From: a virus
Taxonomy: Duplodnaviria > Heunggongvirae > Uroviricota > Caudoviricetes
Virus record (IMG/VR): IMGVR_UViG_2850796239_000011
Coordinates: 1 to 64,000 of that record
Length of the DNA: 64,000 bases
Reading direction: 5' to 3' (one strand)
Under the pieces are notes generated by a model, which was not told the origin of the DNA, ran no database searches, and saw only the letters and a program-made list of their open reading frames with translations. Both the position numbers and the translations under genes were made by a program. Positions 34,663 through 43,455 of this stretch are shown piece after piece (within the stretch, counting starts at the first letter, position 1; every line of letters begins with the position of its first letter).

Positions 34663-35016
34663 GATGGCAGCCTCTTTGGTGATTTTTAATAACTCACCAC
34701 CAAAGCTTCTCACGGCAATAGGTGGTGAGACGTACAGGGGTGAGAAACCGGTCACCAAAGAACCCGGCCCAACCGAAGTTGGCCCTGCACGCCCCACCAT
34801 AATTTGGGCGTAATGCTGCTCATGACACAAAAAAACCGCAAGAGCGCGGTTGTGCGCTTTGGTGAATTCCGGGTTCTCACGCCCGGCACCCGCTTTATAA
34901 GGTGCGGAGACAGTGTAACGTCCCGAAATTGCAGAATCAATATCAAAATGTTGTAGCTGTGGACAACGCGAAGCCTTGTTGTTATTGTTTACAACAAGAA
35001 CCAGAGGAAGCTTTAA

Positions 35017-35304
35017 ATGCCATCCAGACTGTATAAACAGTTCATCCGTCATCTCGGTGAATCTGAATACATACGAATCCGCATATGGGAAGTGGAGCCT
35101 GCTGTATTGGGTAGCCAGCACAACTACAAATACAGCATGGCTTATGTCGTTGATGGCATGTGTGTGATGCGTTACGACAACGAACGGGGTAAAGGCGATC
35201 ACAAACACATTGGTAGTCAGGAAGTCAGCACCAGCTTTGTCACCATTGAACAACTGCTCGCTGATTTTCTGGCTGACGTTGAATCCATCCGCAGAGGTAT
35301 CTGA
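35017..35304 (+). CDS. Putative toxin-like protein (DUF6516/TumE-like motif)
   Basis: 95 aa; RBS GAGGA 8 nt upstream; motif 'MRYDNERGKGDHKHIG'; stop 1 nt before the next start. Confidence 0.55.
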   Translation: MPSRLYKQFIRHLGESEYIRIRIWEVEPAVLGSQHNYKYSMAYVVDGMCVMRYDNERGKGDHKHIGSQEVSTSFVTIEQLLADFLADVESIRRGI

Positions 35305-35305
35305 C

Positions 35306-35665
35306 ATGAGAACCGTAACAATCCGAATCGAGTCAATGGATAATTTCACGGCTGATGTGCTGTCTGCGTTCCAGGAAGCAGCTACCGGAGCAAAAGCAAC
35401 CAGAGAAAACGTTATTTCATTTCCTGACTGGCAAATGATGCATAAGGTACTGACACCAAAACGCATGGACATTCTGATGGCAATGACTGGTGCCGGAGAA
35501 ATGTCCATCCGAAAAATTGCAGCCCTGGTTGGACGTGATGTAAAAAGCGTGCATACTGACGTGACCGCACTCATCAGCAACGGTTTACTGGAAAAAAGCG
35601 AGCGCGGAACGTCATTCCCGTATGACGACATCCACTTTGATTTTACGCTGGGCAAGGCGGCGTAA
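35306..35665 (+). CDS. Putative winged-HTH DNA-binding partner (antitoxin-like)
   Basis: 119 aa from ATG at 35306; MarR-like wHTH segment 'LTPKRMDILMAMTGAGEMSIRKIAALVGRDVKSVHTDVTALISNGLLEKSE'. Confidence 0.55.
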   Translation: MRTVTIRIESMDNFTADVLSAFQEAATGAKATRENVISFPDWQMMHKVLTPKRMDILMAMTGAGEMSIRKIAALVGRDVKSVHTDVTALISNGLLEKSERGTSFPYDDIHFDFTLGKAA

Positions 35666-37073: not shown

Positions 37074-37283
37074 TCACTTCTCATCCTCTGTGTGCGCTAA
37101 GCTTGGATGTGTATATGGAATGTTCGGATCCAGATGGCAGAGAATGGCAACATCCTCCGGAACGCCCCGCGTTTTCCACTTTCCAACTCCCTGACTACCA
37201 CGAGGCTTTCCTTTCTTTGGAAACCTGCGGCCAATAGCGGCATTGGTTTTAAATTGAGTTTTTAATATTTCATAAAGGGTCAT
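37074..37283 (-). CDS. Cro-like early regulator (putative)
   Basis: 69-aa ORF divergent from cI with ~110-bp operator-like intergenic region; assignment by position. Confidence 0.45.
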   Translation of the reverse strand: MTLYEILKTQFKTNAAIGRRFPKKGKPRGSQGVGKWKTRGVPEDVAILCHLDPNIPYTHPSLAHTEDEK

Positions 37284-37394
37284 TCTTTAGCCTCACACCG
37301 GATACTCTGTTATCCAAGAATGTTAAACATGAGAATCCAAAGTATCAAGATATTCTGTTACTTTAGTATCAGCAGCCATGAAAGGAGAAGAAAA
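37284..37394. promoter_or_regulatory. Immunity-region operator/promoter region (PR/PRM-like)
   Basis: Minus strand TTGATA-N17-TAACAT toward cro; repeated 'AGTATCA'/'ACTTTAGT' motifs; plus-strand RBS AAAGGAG before cI. Confidence 0.4.
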
Positions 37395-38051
37395 ATGAAA
37401 TCTTTAGGTGAACGCCTAATCAACGCACGACAAAAAGCTGGGTTAACGCAAGATGCGTTGGCTAAAAAAGCAGGGGTCACCAGAGTTGCAATCAGTAAAG
37501 CCGAGCAAGGCCTTACAAAAAGTTTCAACGGTGACACCCTTTTTAAAGTCGCAGCTGCACTGCAGTGTTCACCGCAGTGGCTTCAGAACGGAGATGAGAA
37601 AGGTAAGCATTGGGAAAATAATGTTAAGAGTTGCCCCCAGAGGGACACAGCACACTCTTACCCTGTAATTAACTGGGTTCAGGCAGGATTATTCACAACT
37701 GCAGGTGATGACTACAACATGTATGATCAGGATAACTGGAGGCATTCTGTAAAATACGCTGGTGAGAGGGGGTTCTGGCTGGAAGTGCACGGAGACTCAA
37801 TGACTTCGCCTATAGGAATAACATTTCCTGAAGGAATGTCGATCCTTGTCAACCCAGATAAAGAAGTTTTTTCAGGGTGTTACGTCATTGCCAGAAAAAA
37901 ATCCACCAATGAAGCAACATTCAAAAAATATATTTCTGAAATGGGAAAGGCGTTTCTAAAGCCCCTTAATCCACAATACCCAATCATAGAAATGGACAAT
38001 GATTGCGAAATAGTAGGCGTTGTGGTTGATGCCAGATGGGATATTTTCTGA
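37395..38051 (+). CDS. cI: CI-like repressor (HTH-XRE + S24 LexA-like peptidase domain)
   Basis: N-terminal HTH ('LTQDALAKKAGVTRVAISKAEQG'), C-terminal S24-like domain with 'HGDSM'. Confidence 0.85.
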   Translation: MKSLGERLINARQKAGLTQDALAKKAGVTRVAISKAEQGLTKSFNGDTLFKVAAALQCSPQWLQNGDEKGKHWENNVKSCPQRDTAHSYPVINWVQAGLFTTAGDDYNMYDQDNWRHSVKYAGERGFWLEVHGDSMTSPIGITFPEGMSILVNPDKEVFSGCYVIARKKSTNEATFKKYISEMGKAFLKPLNPQYPIIEMDNDCEIVGVVVDARWDIF

Positions 38052-38078
38052 CCAGATACAAAATACAAAAAGAAACCT

Positions 38079-38122
38079 AAGTATCAAAAACACTTGCAAC
38101 ACCTTGATACTTTAGTTACCAT
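38079..38122 (+). promoter_or_regulatory. Candidate PL/OL: inverted repeat overlapping a sigma70-like promoter
   Basis: 'AAGTATCAA'-N16-'TTGATACTT' inverted repeat (38079-38112); TTGCAA-N17-TACCAT oriented toward the 38154 gene. Confidence 0.35.
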
Positions 38123-38153
38123 AAAACAAAGTTCGTAACTGAGGTATCATCTC

Positions 38154-38603
38154 ATGATCAATAAAGCTACAACTCTTGACTGTCTCGAAGAACTGAAAAA
38201 CCTCGGCAGCCTCATTACACTAATAGCAAAAGCAACGGCAGATGCTACGCTCTCTAGCGATATAGAGTCATGCGCAGGACTGGCATGGGATATGACAAAT
38301 AGCATATCCAGAAAGCTATCGTCAGCAATGCTTTTACAGAACAAAAATTCTGCAATCAACAACCGCCTTCGCACCCAACGCGAAGCCTGCGGCTTAACAA
38401 CAGCCGAACTCGCCAGGCTGCTCGATCTCGATGAAGAAATTATCATCCAGTGGGAGAGCGGAGAGTATGAACCAACTATCAGTATGCTTATCCCACTGGC
38501 AAATATTCTTGGCTGCGATCCGATGTGGCTGTTAACTGGTGAGGTTACTCCTCCGGAGCAACCAAAAAGTGAGGAGCAGCAACACCATGACGCATCTCAA
38601 TAA
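38154..38603 (+). CDS. HTH-XRE domain protein, first gene of early-left operon
   Basis: 149 aa; C-terminal HTH 'LTTAELARLLDLDEEIIIQWESGEYEPT'. Confidence 0.55.
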   Translation: MINKATTLDCLEELKNLGSLITLIAKATADATLSSDIESCAGLAWDMTNSISRKLSSAMLLQNKNSAINNRLRTQREACGLTTAELARLLDLDEEIIIQWESGEYEPTISMLIPLANILGCDPMWLLTGEVTPPEQPKSEEQQHHDASQ

Positions 38604-38785
38604 GTTTGCCCCTTATCTCGCGAAGCTCTTCTACGGAAGAACCAATACCAATGGTGACATAATCGCCGCTTCGGCCCTCAAGGTACATGCGAACATTTTT
38701 ATCAATCATTGCGGAAACAGTCTCAATATGAAAACACTTCTGAGACTCGCTATATAGCAGAACATATAAGTCAGCTGAGGAAGCC

Positions 38786-39151
38786 ATGAAAAAGTTCGAA
38801 AACATAACTGTTCTCCATGTTGATGACTTTGATTATACAAACCCGGAACTTCTCCCGGAGGTTGTAAAGGCAATAGATGTTGCCGATATAGTGATTAGAG
38901 GAAAGAGAATTGTCAAAAACAGGCTCGCATGCACTTCAGGAGCAATGACAGAAACAACCTCACAGCAAGATAATTACGAAGGCATTTGTCTGGAGCCTGA
39001 TTCATTTGCGGTAAATGTTTATCATTTATTGCATGCAACACAGGTATTACATATGTCCAGTAACCTCGTAACGAAAGCACTTGGCAGCGATATTCTGGAC
39101 TTTGCATGTGAGTATTCAAAAGCTGCTGCCGAAAAAGAATTAGCGCAATAA
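38786..39151 (+). CDS. Hypothetical protein
   Basis: 121-aa ORF with RBS GAGGAAG upstream of ATG 38786. Confidence 0.4.
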   Translation: MKKFENITVLHVDDFDYTNPELLPEVVKAIDVADIVIRGKRIVKNRLACTSGAMTETTSQQDNYEGICLEPDSFAVNVYHLLHATQVLHMSSNLVTKALGSDILDFACEYSKAAAEKELAQ

Positions 39152-39346
39152 CAACAAATATGCCCTGAACGTTTATTGCGGTTTTATCACCGGGGATTGT
39201 TACAACCTTAATCCACAGGAGGCTTTATTATGACTTTTATAAAGAATATGGCATCACACAAGACCGCCAGCCTTATTGCACAATACGGTGAAAATTACAT
39301 GCATATTGCCTGCTTATTTCTGCGTAAAGCATACGGGAAATAACAA

Positions 39347-39706
39347 ATGACACATGAACCCATTAATACATATCGTCGCCGTATAGCTGTTGCGGCACTC
39401 CATCGAATAAAACGTAAAACAGGTGGTGATCTGCTTATTGTTGACCTTCTGGATGGGAACATTACGACCATAGAAATAACAGAACAGTTTATAAACCAGT
39501 TGCTGTTGCGCTTTGAAGGTATTACCCGTGGTGAATTGGGTCGAGTGGAGGGTGAAACAGAAATCCGAACTGCATACCAGAATGCTATCGGGATTAATCA
39601 ACATACTGAATACCAGGCTGAAACCGGAAAGTTAATTATAGACAACCTTTTACAAGAGGTTATTGATTACGCGAAAGAAAAATATATCAGAGGAGGAATT
39701 AACTGA
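39347..39706 (+). CDS. Hypothetical protein
   Basis: 119-aa ORF; no family recognised. Confidence 0.35.
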   Translation: MTHEPINTYRRRIAVAALHRIKRKTGGDLLIVDLLDGNITTIEITEQFINQLLLRFEGITRGELGRVEGETEIRTAYQNAIGINQHTEYQAETGKLIIDNLLQEVIDYAKEKYIRGGIN

Positions 39707-39793
39707 TGGCTAATTTATCCCCTGTATCTGTTGTGCACGAAAAAGTGCAGTGAGGTGTACTGGCAATAGCGGACACTACCATTTGTTCTTTTT

Positions 39794-40612
39794 TTAAGCA
39801 GCCATCTGATGATATTTTTCCCTGAAGGCTGCCGGGGAGATATTCCCCAGACGAGAGTGACGACGCTGACGATTGTAGAAAATCTCAATGTATTCCCGTA
39901 TTACTGAGATGGCTTCATCCCGGTTATTAAAACGATAGTGGCTCAGGCTCTCATTTTTCAGCGTTCCCCAGAAGCTTTCCATCGGAGCGTTGTCGTAACA
40001 GTTACCTTTACGCGACATTGATGTTTTCAGACCAGACTGCTCCTGTATGACCCGGTAATCGTATGCGCAGTACTGTGAACCTCGATCAGAGTGGTGGATT
40101 AGCCCGGCAGGTGGGCGCTGGCTCCTGAGCGCCATAAACAGGGCTTTACCTGTCAGCTCTTTTGTCATGCGCTCTCCCATGGCGTAGCCGACAATTTCGC
40201 ACGTATAAACATCTTTGATGCCAGCGAGGTACAACCATCCCTCCTGTGTGGCAACATACGTCAGGTCCGCCACCCAGACCTGATTTGGTGCTGTAGGAGC
40301 GAACGTCTGGTTCAGCAGATTTGGCGCAACTGGCAGATTGTGGTTCGGGTTCGTAGTCGCTCTGAACTTGCGTTTCTGCTTACAGCGTAGCCTTAGCTCC
40401 TTACGAAGACGTGCCAGTCGGTCACGACCAACGATGATGCCATTCTCTGCCAGCTCCGTCTGGAGCCGCCGGGTTCCATATGTTTCGCGAGTGCGGATAT
40501 GTGCCACCTTAATCTCCAGTTTTAGCCGCTCATCACTTTGTTTTCTGTCTGAGGGTTCATGCTGTACCCAGTTGTAATAACCGCTCCTGGATACACCAAA
40601 TACCTGACACAT
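39794..40612 (-). CDS. IS600 transposase OrfB (DDE integrase domain)
   Basis: 272 aa IS3-family OrfB. Confidence 0.9.
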   Translation of the reverse strand: MCQVFGVSRSGYYNWVQHEPSDRKQSDERLKLEIKVAHIRTRETYGTRRLQTELAENGIIVGRDRLARLRKELRLRCKQKRKFRATTNPNHNLPVAPNLLNQTFAPTAPNQVWVADLTYVATQEGWLYLAGIKDVYTCEIVGYAMGERMTKELTGKALFMALRSQRPPAGLIHHSDRGSQYCAYDYRVIQEQSGLKTSMSRKGNCYDNAPMESFWGTLKNESLSHYRFNNRDEAISVIREYIEIFYNRQRRHSRLGNISPAAFREKYHQMAA

Positions 40613-40647
40613 CGCTTCAATGGGAAATTGTTGTCGCCATTGTTCGA

Positions 40648-40950
40648 TTAACGCGTATTTTTCAGCGACTCCTGTGCAAAATACGCTGTTGCTTTTTTTA
40701 ATATATCTCGCTCAAGGCGAGCTTCATTTAACGCCTTACGCAGTTGCAGAATTTCAGATTCCAGTTCAGCCACCGTGCGGGAACCAGGAGTACCGAGCCC
40801 TTTTCTGGCGGCGGTAACCCATTGTCCTAAAGTGCCTTCAGGAAGGGATAATCGGGAAGCGCCTTCACTGATCGAAAGTTGATTTTCAAGAACCGTTCTG
40901 ACAGCTTCGGCTTTGAACTCTTTAGAGTAACGTTGGGTTTTTCTGCTCAT
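40648..40950 (-). CDS. IS600 OrfA (HTH)
   Basis: 100 aa 'MSRKTQRYSKEFKAEAVRTVLENQLSISEGASRLSLPEG'. Confidence 0.9.
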   Translation of the reverse strand: MSRKTQRYSKEFKAEAVRTVLENQLSISEGASRLSLPEGTLGQWVTAARKGLGTPGSRTVAELESEILQLRKALNEARLERDILKKATAYFAQESLKNTR

Positions 40951-41159
40951 TATTAGCTCCTTCTGATGCCATTCTATTTCAGGAAGGAGTGTCCGTTAAA
41001 CTCAGGCTACCTCACAGATCGTTATGACAATTGAAAATGGCCAGGTAACAGATGTCTGCAAAGTCCGCGATGGAGAGCTGATTGCCAGCATGGATACATT
41101 CATACGGCTGGCAGAAAGAGCGGGGTATCAGATAACAGCACCTGCTCAGGAGGAAACCA

Positions 41160-42242: not shown

Positions 42243-42568
42243 ATGACTAAAAATACTCGTTTTTCCCCGAAGTCCGTCAGAGGGCGATTCGTATGGTTCT
42301 GGAAAGTCAGGGCGAATATGACTCACAGTGGGCGGCAATTTGTTCCATTGCCCCAAAGATTGGCTGTACACCGGAGACTCTGCGTGTCCGGGTACGCCAG
42401 CATGAGCGGGATACCGGAGGCGGTGATGGCGGGCTCACCACCGCTGAACGTCAGCGTCTGAAAGAGCTGGAACGTGAAAATCGTGAACTGCGCCGCAGTA
42501 ACGATATCCTTCGCCAGGCTTCCGCTTATTTTGCGAAGGCGGAGTTCGACCGCCTCTGGAAAAAATAA
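42243..42568 (+). pseudogene. IS629 orfA with 1-nt deletion
   Basis: Starts 'MTKNTRFSP' then shifts frame; the in-frame remainder is the 42293-42568 ORF; 'CCGAAG' where 'CCGGAAG' is expected. Confidence 0.7.
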
Positions 42569-43455
42569 TGCCACTGCTGGATAAGCTGCGTGAGCAGTAC
42601 GGGGTCGGACCGCTATGCAGCGAACTGCATATTGCCCCGTCAACGTATTACCACTGTCAGCAACAGCGACATCATCCGGATAAACGCAGTGCCCGTGCGC
42701 AGCGCGATGAGTGGCTGAAGAAAGAGATACAGCGCGTATACGATGAAAATCACAAGGTATACGGTGTGCGTAAAGTCTGGCGTCAGTTGTTACGGGAAGG
42801 TATCAGAGTGGCCAGATGCACTGTGGCACGTCTCATGGCGGTTATGGGACTTGCCGGTGTTCTCCGGGGTAAAAAGGTCCGTACGACCATCAGCCGGAAA
42901 GCCGTTGCCGCAGGCGACCGCGTAAACCGTCAGTTCGTGGCAGAACGACCTGACCAGCTGTGGGTGGCTGATTTTACTTACGTCAGCACATGGCAGGGCT
43001 TCGTCTATGTGGCGTTCATCATTGATGTGTTTGCCGGATACATCGTGGGGTGGCGGGTCTCATCGTCCATGGACACGACATTCGTGCTGGATGCACTGGA
43101 GCAGGCGTTATGGGCCCGTCGACCGTCCGGCACGGTCCATCACAGTGATAAAGGTTCTCAGTATGTATCGCTGGGCTACACACAGCGGCTTAAGGAAGCC
43201 GGATTACTGGCATCAACAGGAAGTACAGGCGACTCGTATGACAACGCGATGGCGGAGAGCATCAATGGTCTTTACAAAGCGGAGGTAATACACCGTAAGA
43301 GCTGGAAAAACCGTGCAGAAGTGGAACTGGCCACACTCACGTGGGTGGACTGGTATAACAATCGACGATTGCTGGAAAGGCTGGGCCATACTCCTCCGGC
43401 AGAAGCAGAAAAAGCTTATTATGCTTCCATCGGAAACGATGATCTGGCAGCCTGA
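42568..43455 (+). CDS. IS629 transposase OrfB
   Basis: 295 aa IS3-family DDE transposase. Confidence 0.85.
   Translation: MPLLDKLREQYGVGPLCSELHIAPSTYYHCQQQRHHPDKRSARAQRDEWLKKEIQRVYDENHKVYGVRKVWRQLLREGIRVARCTVARLMAVMGLAGVLRGKKVRTTISRKAVAAGDRVNRQFVAERPDQLWVADFTYVSTWQGFVYVAFIIDVFAGYIVGWRVSSSMDTTFVLDALEQALWARRPSGTVHHSDKGSQYVSLGYTQRLKEAGLLASTGSTGDSYDNAMAESINGLYKAEVIHRKSWKNRAEVELATLTWVDWYNNRRLLERLGHTPPAEAEKAYYASIGNDDLAA

Follow-up and report, generated by a model that had tools for sequence, protein, structure and literature searches.

Positions 38052-39706 of the 64,000-nucleotide stretch analysed here (positions 1 to 64,000 of the Caudoviricetes record IMGVR_UViG_2850796239_000011, hereafter the window) extend from the end of the cI repressor gene towards an IS600 element. 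The region contains five small phage genes, all of them real, conserved and uncharacterised and one encoded on the opposite strand, and it forms the beginning, under repressor control, of the early-left operon in a decayed prophage of the phiP27 type. An earlier reading of the sequence (the original prediction) had described a three-gene operon of unrecognised genes, with a further convergent open reading frame (ORF). The ORFs at 38154-38603, 38786 and 39347 on the plus strand and the ORF of 86 amino acids (aa) at 38545-38805 on the minus strand are all located as described, and the assignment to the early-left operon holds; the gene number, however, is five, one gene lies on the other strand and is paired with the 121-aa gene, and a short gene (s37) had been missed. 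The features are given below; pN/pS, the ratio of nonsynonymous to synonymous differences, was calculated by the Nei-Gojobori method against diverged orthologues, and its values of 0.2-0.7 show purifying selection on all five genes.

38052..38153, plus strand: left operator and putative left promoter (OL/PL), the 102-nucleotide (nt) spacer between cI and gene A, with an inverted repeat, candidate -35 and -10 hexamers and a Shine-Dalgarno sequence GAGG at 38140-38143
38154..38603, plus strand: gene A (L10 of phiP27), 149 aa; HTH_3 at 43.6 bits; phrog_4739; pN/pS 0.28
38545..38805, minus strand: gene B, 86 aa; convergent with A (59-nt overlap) and head-to-head with C (20-nt overlap of the starts); phrog_6104
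38786..39151, plus strand: gene C (L08 of phiP27), 121 aa; phrog_5451, with phrog_4587 on the C-terminal half
38786-38953, plus strand: C-N domain of C (residues 1-56), the conserved divergent partner of B
38969-39148, plus strand: X domain of C (residues 62-121), resembling the N-terminal domain of P0085-type regulators
39230..39343, plus strand: gene s37, 37 aa, basic (net charge +4), with GGAGG 5-6 nt upstream of the ATG; absent from the original prediction
39347..39706, plus strand: gene D, 119 aa; phrog_1737; predicted to be helical with a beta-hairpin; pN/pS 0.30

A prophage of Escherichia coli FDAARGOS_944 (hereafter L001) shares 98% identity with the segment, which was found at ≥80% coverage in 135 complete E. 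coli genomes, its relatives being approximately 135 prophages of E. coli and Shigella. From cI to gene C it shares 94% DNA identity and gene order with L11–L08 of phiP27, a phage converting to Shiga toxin (Stx) 2e, and 84-85% identity with several Stx1a and Stx2a phages. The plus strand of uninterrupted relatives carries cI, A, C and further genes, then SPFH, DUF5406, excisionase, integrase and the attachment site, followed by the host genes yecE-yecN-cmoA; beyond IS600 the window is colinear with L001. The layout is thus that of a lambdoid early-left operon, in which the genes between cI and xis/int share the strand of cI: this applies to A, C, s37 and D, which in the uninterrupted relatives lead to excisionase and integrase.

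In agreement with the original prediction, no N-, exo/bet- or rex-like genes were recognised: the ORFs of the region had no PHROG, Pfam or NCBIfam match to N, Exo, Bet, Gam or Rex, and a search by eye for nutL-like boxA and boxB elements gave only partial matches, with no N gene. No intrinsic terminator was predicted on the plus strand between cI and IS600 (38052-39706), which fits the absence of an N-type antiterminator, and a search of the same interval for small RNAs yielded no Rfam match even at E ≤ 1. PHROGs, Pfam, NCBIfam and public annotation give no function for any of the genes, as had been suspected. The window versions of all five proteins exactly match database entries whose names state no function ("hypothetical", "uncharacterised", "helix-turn-helix domain-containing" and, for D, "Fels-1 prophage protein"), and a literature search by accession, by phiP27 and by position found no functional study. 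Among the early-left genes of the K-12 prophages Qin and Rac (ydfA/B/C, ydaF/G, sieB, kilR), homologues of B, C, s37 and D were sought and not found; only the helix-turn-helix (HTH) domain of A resembles DicA.

The immunity genes proper lie immediately upstream of the region:

37074..37283, minus strand: cro-position gene, 69 aa, basic (net charge +5), divergent from cI; phrog_4749 over its full length; conserved in phiP27 and Stx phages
37284..37394: spacer between cro and cI, resembling a right operator (OR), with operator motifs of the GATAC/GTATC type; its repeats are common to 38052-38153
37395..38051, plus strand: cI of the LexA type, 218 aa, with HTH_3 and Peptidase_S24 domains (Pfam); annotated by RefSeq in L001 as a coding sequence of 657 nt

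The operator-like inverted repeat overlapping a candidate PL after cI, proposed in the original prediction, is present, and its motifs are common to the cI-cro spacer. Its arms (38074-38087 and 38104-38117) are 14 nt long, 86% complementary and 16 nt apart, and each of them recurs in the cI-cro spacer. Read by eye, the pentamer GATAC/GTATC occurs three times per approximately 100 nt in both spacers, compared with about 0.2 expected. Four of the seven matches to a degenerate 14-mer in the window fall within the two cI-flanking spacers, a descriptive figure only, as the pattern was derived from those sites. The candidate PL, read from the sequence, consists of TTGCAA (38094-38099), a 17-nt spacer and TACCAT (38117-38122), with 8 of 12 positions matching; one operator copy is located just 5' of the -35 hexamer and the other lies across the spacer and the -10 hexamer. 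The hexamers are kept in phiP27 and in Stx1 phages. Heteroimmune relatives carry, at the equivalent place, their own OR-like motifs and a near-consensus promoter (TTGACA-17-CATAAT in PhiR49_2), and this comparison backs the interpretation of the spacer as a putative PL with operators related to OR. In some relatives (the sequences L007 and L010) an intrinsic terminator is present between cI and the promoter; none was seen in the window.

Gene A encodes an N-terminal helical domain (residues 1-65) followed by one acidic HTH domain of the XRE fold (residues 66-130), in which HTH_3 (PF01381) covers residues 72-126 with a score well above the gathering cut-off of 23 bits. Most homologues are 215-250 aa long and have two tandem HTH domains; A of the window, like L10 of phiP27, is a widespread single-HTH variant with its junction in the repeated motif "PLAN(V/I)LGCDP - MWLLTG". 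A frameshifted longer gene was considered and ruled out, the short form being a clean single-HTH variant in many clusters. Homologues of A always directly follow the repressor gene, be it an S24-bearing or a short DicA-like one, and alleles of the A-like protein were found on hundreds to more than 1000 contigs each.

The two parts of the protein have different distributions. The N-terminal approximately 65-90 residues belong to many unrelated types of helical hairpin, all joined to one conserved HTH. Four cI types pair one-to-one with four types of the A N-domain in 74 of 74 IMG/VR loci, many of which are near-identical and hence not independent. A set of eleven loci comprises nine repressor types, each with its own one of nine types of N-domain, the HTH being 73-98% identical throughout; similarity between N-domains was seen there only where the repressors are closely related, and one further BLAST match (L119/L121, 75%) falls, by eye, in the shared linker adjoining the HTH. 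Immunity-specific N-domains combined with a constant HTH place the mosaic joint of the immunity module inside gene A, at the domain boundary.

The HTH domain of A has a net charge of -7 (pI 4.2), which is also the family median, compared with +4 to +9 for P22 C2, 434 cI/Cro, DicA and the cI and cro products of this prophage. In an ungapped alignment, D93, E94 and E95 of A correspond to S31, N32 and V33 of C2, which we take to be DNA-contact residues in the C2-operator structure. With four lysines and arginines in 65 residues, the HTH of A has neither a basic DNA-contact surface nor polar recognition-helix residues, and the second HTH of the longer relatives carries S-D-P-I-N-D in place of the recognition helix. 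From the acidic HTH and the switching of N-domains with the repressor type we infer that a role of A as a classical operator-binding repressor is unlikely and that it more probably acts through immunity-type-specific protein contacts.

Gene B is a genuine minus-strand gene, as it is the only open frame with low pN/pS and has an intact orthologue in ASU11. Its frame has a pN/pS of 0.30 versus 0.77-1.86 in four other frames; the antisense frame that shares the wobble positions of B has 0.33 and is not open. The ASU11 orthologue is 76% identical at the amino acid level, with runs of purely synonymous change. The convergent ORF reported over the end of the first gene has thus proved to be a real gene. 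A 72-aa plus-strand ORF at 38539-38757 was considered in its place and ruled out (pN/pS 1.17). The AlphaFold model of B, with a confidence score (pLDDT) above 90 for residues 11-70, has a beta-beta-alpha-beta-alpha arrangement, and the combination of a significant fold match with signature residues of a GIY-YIG nuclease or an MbtH-like fold was not found. A profile search collected an uncurated family of 347 representatives at E ≤ 1e-3, mostly of 60-110 aa, with the motif V-x3-S-x2-Q-x2-F-H ... N ... D-Y; none of the sampled members had a Pfam match. Rare members (P0180, P0243, P0248) have an N-terminal fusion to an XRE HTH or a tandem duplication, and the HTH fused to the B-like domain in P0180 is basic by reading of the sequence; this suggests that HTH regulators may use the B fold as a partner or sensor domain.

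Gene C (pN/pS 0.31-0.73, with few substitutions) is composed of two modules, C-N and X, which are separate genes in some phages, e.g., in L085. The X domain shares 40% identity (E 3e-9) with the N-terminal domain of P0085-type A-like regulators from other immunity groups. A "self-decoy", in which X would be homologous to the N-domain of A itself, was rejected, since hhalign gave a probability of 0.2% and only other allele classes match. A sequence search of PDB yielded no match for B, C or D.

B and C form a conserved head-to-head pair. Among 95 B loci gathered from IMG/VR by a scan with a degenerate DNA pattern, B is head-to-head with the C-N gene in 80, with a start overlap of 20 nt in 68 loci and of 38 nt in 8. 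The pair is kept where B is only 41-46% identical, the spacing there being 0 to +12 nt or an overlap of approximately 40 nt, and both neighbours of B run antiparallel to it in roughly half of the diverged loci. More distant relatives of B occur without C-N; several follow replication genes, such as those for DnaB-like helicases (identified by reading the sequences). Since the starts of B and C overlap, the promoter of B must sit inside C, where two candidates were seen by eye: TTGACA-17-CACTAT, with the -35 hexamer at 38916-38911, and a perfect TATAAT at 38838-38833. Transcription of B is directed against that from PL; together with the 59-nt overlap with the 3' end of A, this would have B expressed when PL is off.

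The 341-nt core at 38700-39040, which comprises the 5' third of B, the overlapping starts and codons 1-85 of C, is 97-98% identical to both ASU11 and phiP27, and its flanks are only 48-73% identical to them. The core could reflect a recent mosaic exchange or an overlapping, multi-layer constraint. Individual genes of the pair are lost in some relatives: C is frameshifted by a 16-nt deletion in E. coli FDAARGOS_944 (L001 13787-14135), and in phiP27 (L002 6486-7062) a replacement of approximately 280 nt destroys B after codon 29, the unrelated DNA carrying the annotated L09.

The short gene s37 is conserved in all eight comparison loci, with 68-100% amino acid identity and a pN/pS of 0.20-0.31. 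It is called as a gene in public records, several other records leave it unannotated, and profile searches of the Pfam and PHROGs type found no family for it. Gene D belongs to a family confined to Enterobacteriaceae; its structure model (pLDDT 74) yielded generic helical matches only, and neither this model nor that of B had informative structural relatives. D is absent from the equivalent position in phiP27. Its downstream neighbour differs between phages, and D is therefore not tied to the ParE-like pair described below. Relatives of D in Enterobacter prophages lie in the early-left operon after cI and a second HTH gene. Several such prophages with a D homologue (L009-L012, 2893-4677) encode, in this order, a cI with S24, a 143-aa HTH protein and a stand-alone 128-aa Peptidase_S24 protein, a further case of a second HTH protein following cI.

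On the anatomy, homology, purifying selection, domain and charge patterns and synteny described above, we propose the following for promoter use, expression timing and molecular function. With moderate confidence, the genes are regarded as switch-associated regulatory and accessory genes of the promoter-proximal part of a CI-controlled PL operon in a defective phiP27-type lambdoid prophage, of a class lacking N, Rec and Rex modules, A being a modulator of the CI/Cro switch. PL and its operators would be located in the 102-nt spacer after cI, and CI bound there would largely silence A, C, s37 and D in the lysogen, so that they would be expressed early after induction or infection. In a large family of prophages from E. 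coli, Shigella and Salmonella, A would be the conserved first gene of the PL operon; joining an immunity-type-specific helical N-terminal domain to a universal acidic XRE-fold module, it may modulate the CI/Cro switch by contacting proteins, as a commitment factor of the antirepressor or co-repressor kind that in principle resembles Mor of TP901-1, and would be neither a classical operator-binding repressor nor an exclusion protein. B, in the opposite orientation, would be autonomous, its transcription starting inside C and converging on that from PL; given the conserved head-to-head pairing, B and C are each likely expressed when the other is off, with B on in the lysogen. The proteins s37 and D would be conserved early accessory proteins. 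IS600 cuts the operon after D.

Several observations weigh against this interpretation. The hexamers of the candidate PL are weak, fall below the threshold of the promoter scan and were not called, and as no terminator follows cI, read-through from PRM could express A in lysogens. The candidate promoters of B are weak or unconserved, the TATAAT being TATAAC in ASU11. The pairing of N-domains with repressors could be mere physical linkage, with recombination confined to the conserved DNA encoding the HTH. The simple model in which C is a decoy of the prophage's own regulator fails, X being unlike the N-domain of A. Finally, the HTH of A passes HTH_3 with a canonical Q-W-E-x-G-x-x-x-P motif and is closest to the true repressors C2 and DicA; A may thus bind DNA.

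The last point leads to the strongest of the alternatives, namely that A is an ordinary DNA-binding early regulator, either a repressor of the DicA/C2 type or a "CII-like" activator, acting on a conserved early-left site, and that B, C, s37 and D are unrelated accessory genes. The variable N-terminal hairpin would then be a dimerisation domain, diverged against cross-dimerisation between paralogues from co-resident prophages. The significant HTH_3 score speaks for such a regulator, as do the best sequence relatives of A in PDB, P22 C2 (E 2.7e-6) and 434 repressor/Cro, and the identity with DicA (33% over 97 aa). Moreover, the neighbouring PHROG family 4836 is labelled "CII-like regulator", and an HTH conserved across heteroimmune phages fits a conserved DNA target. 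However, the net charge of -7, the D-E-E at the start of the recognition helix and the scarcity of lysine and arginine are family-wide, the S-D-P-I-N-D helix of the longer relatives is atypical, no conserved palindrome was identified as a target, and against the DicA model of NCBIfam (NF007257) A scores 48.8 bits, below the cut-off of 101. We consider this alternative possible, though clearly less probable than a switch modulator. The Psr regulators of prophages of enterohaemorrhagic E. coli were also considered as relatives of A and ruled out, being of the AraC type.

A bolder version of the protein-contact model is somewhat less probable still and is put forward only tentatively. Here A would be a new class of immunity-specific switch protein in Gram-negative lambdoid prophages, Stx phages among them: an acidic, DNA-binding-incompetent "pseudo-repressor" with a hypervariable N-domain that targets the cognate CI or Cro. 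B and C would make up a second, antisense-coupled toggle. As the first PL product, A would lock in lytic commitment or, via read-through, tune induction; the toggle would report or reinforce the lysogenic versus the lytic state.

The original prediction had suggested a role in exclusion or anti-defence. In this case at least one of the genes would be a superinfection-exclusion, abortive-infection or anti-defence factor, the most plausible candidates being B, which may be expressed in the lysogen, or the acidic A as an early DNA mimic. In other phages, this map position is occupied by exclusion-type genes (rexAB, sieB, nun and stk). The acidity of A, C and the X domain is a property shared by many DNA-mimic anti-restriction proteins. 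B has a moron-like anatomy, with opposite orientation and a transcription unit of its own, and relatives of D are found near Lar and ORF6N genes. Position offers a precedent also in BTP1, where the defence gene bstA lies next to cI (PMC8585504). However, PADLOC and structure prediction, both proposed as a check, did not bear the claim out. With PADLOC-DB 2.0, the matches of A and cI are confined to the HTH segment of RmrA, HTH_VI and capH, a single match of D is at chance level (E 0.008 over 34 residues) and B and C have none, so that membership in known anti-phage systems was not detected. Pfam, NCBIfam and PHROGs assign no defence-related function to any of the genes, and structure prediction leaves B and D as small soluble proteins, again with no informative relatives. 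The distant relatives of B that follow replication genes or are fused to a DNA-binding HTH suggest a regulatory or adaptor role instead, and the features of A point to the lysis-lysogeny switch. We therefore regard an exclusion or anti-defence function as improbable.

The region is bounded and followed by mobile elements and a split gene:

39706..39753, plus strand: 5' stump of a 71-aa gene (phrog_340), 15 codons followed by a stop just inside IS600; the gene is intact in L001 (14691-14906)
39751..41014, minus strand: IS600, 1264 bp, with transposase ORFs and a CAG target duplication (39748-39750 and 41015-41017); junctions mapped against L001
41015..41378, plus strand: the rest of the split 71-aa gene, up to 41188, in a region that also holds a ParE-like gene and is colinear with L001
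41160-41378, plus strand: intact ParE-like toxin gene overlapping the 71-aa gene; PF24732 (ParE_like), 64.8 bits versus a cut-off of 24.4

IS600 does interrupt the operon, as originally predicted, although not directly after position 39706: it starts at 39751 and splits the next gene, whose ATG overlaps the stop codon of D (ATGA), after codon 15. The toxin domain above cut-off and the small overlapping upstream gene, seen in L001, fit a putative type II toxin–antitoxin pair of the ParE-like kind. An antitoxin role of the 71-aa protein would require the toxin to be silent or inactive here. An IS3-family element (42293-43455), with an ALIL frameshift pseudoknot (42523-42639; 119 bits), follows approximately 1.3 kb beyond IS600, and the two elements interrupt the early-left operon at least twice; relatives carry IS600 in dnaB and int.

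These insertions and the loss of C in L001 and of B in phiP27, which indicates that individual genes are dispensable, would suit inert leftovers of a cryptic, IS-riddled prophage, whatever their ancestral role, yet this is the least probable alternative, as all five ORFs are intact here, the window proteins exactly match proteins on tens to hundreds of contigs, and cI, cro and the operators are intact.

Two further modules were noted in the early-right region of the same prophage. At 34718-34905 on the minus strand, near genes of the Rha/Ant type, Rfam places a C4 antisense RNA (83 bits) next to an isrK Hfq-binding RNA (64 bits), each scoring above its gathering threshold; the site looks like an antisense-controlled antirepressor module of the P1 immI kind. 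At 35017-35665 on the plus strand, a gene with a TumE toxin domain (PF20126) is followed by a gene of the HVO_A0114 family, forming a toxin–antitoxin-like pair in opposite orientation among the early-right genes.

The class of prophages in which the genes described here adjoin the repressor is very common in E. coli, Shigella and Salmonella; it includes Stx1-, Stx2a- and Stx2e-converting phages, and its lysis-lysogeny switch is yet to be dissected. If A is indeed an immunity-specific CI modulator, it would affect prophage induction and hence the release of Shiga toxin and the spread of the phages, and the Mor-type use of an HTH protein as an antirepressor would extend from phages of Gram-positive bacteria to lambdoid phages with a LexA-type CI. 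If these are ordinary accessory genes, the finding is a routine one of hypothetical phage proteins in a decayed prophage. The sequences themselves are common and have long been deposited as hypotheticals; specific, testable leads in a prophage class of medical relevance come from the architecture of B/C and from the pattern of charge and domains in A.

Among the known systems, the closest is phiP27 (AJ298298 / NC_003356), in which the repressor gene L11 is followed by L10, L09 and L08 and the order, the operators and the PL hexamers are like those of the window, with A corresponding to L10 and C to L08. It differs in that B is destroyed, the annotated L09 is a different ORF and no D is found at this position; its genes are all annotated as unknown, hence no function can be transferred. 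An early-left operon without genes of the exo/bet/gam type is also typical of a sizeable class of lambdoid phages that have no Rec module, the "LLS functional type" (PMC12315714); the published description of the class covers neither phages of the phiP27 type nor the gene families reported here.

As for A, an instructive parallel is Mor of the lactococcal phage TP901-1, an antirepressor with a typical HTH fold that binds the N-terminal domain of CI and has no demonstrated high-affinity DNA binding of its own (PMC11149083). Like A in the proposed model, Mor of TP901-1 and of the staphylococcal phage phi13 is a small protein of the XRE/HTH fold made from an early lytic promoter next to cI. Unlike A, which lies downstream of cI on the same strand, Mor occupies the cro position and is divergent from cI; furthermore, the window prophage encodes a separate basic Cro-like protein, and its A has an extra, immunity-specific N-terminal domain. 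The resemblance is offered as a hypothesis drawn by analogy and not as family membership, no sequence relationship having been tested or seen. By sequence, the best relatives of the HTH of A are the N-terminal domains of DicA (Qin), P22 C2 and the 434 repressor, which are basic (+4 to +7) compared with -7 for A.

Finally, lambda rexAB, P22 and Rac sieB, HK022 nun, 933W stk and BTP1 bstA share with these genes a map position just beyond cI, and sieB of Rac is antiparallel to its neighbours, as is B. Searches with PHROG, Pfam, PADLOC and NCBIfam and the comparison with Qin and Rac revealed no homology of A-D or s37 to any of them. A is located downstream of a putative PL and not inside the cI transcript, although read-through from cI may reach A as well.

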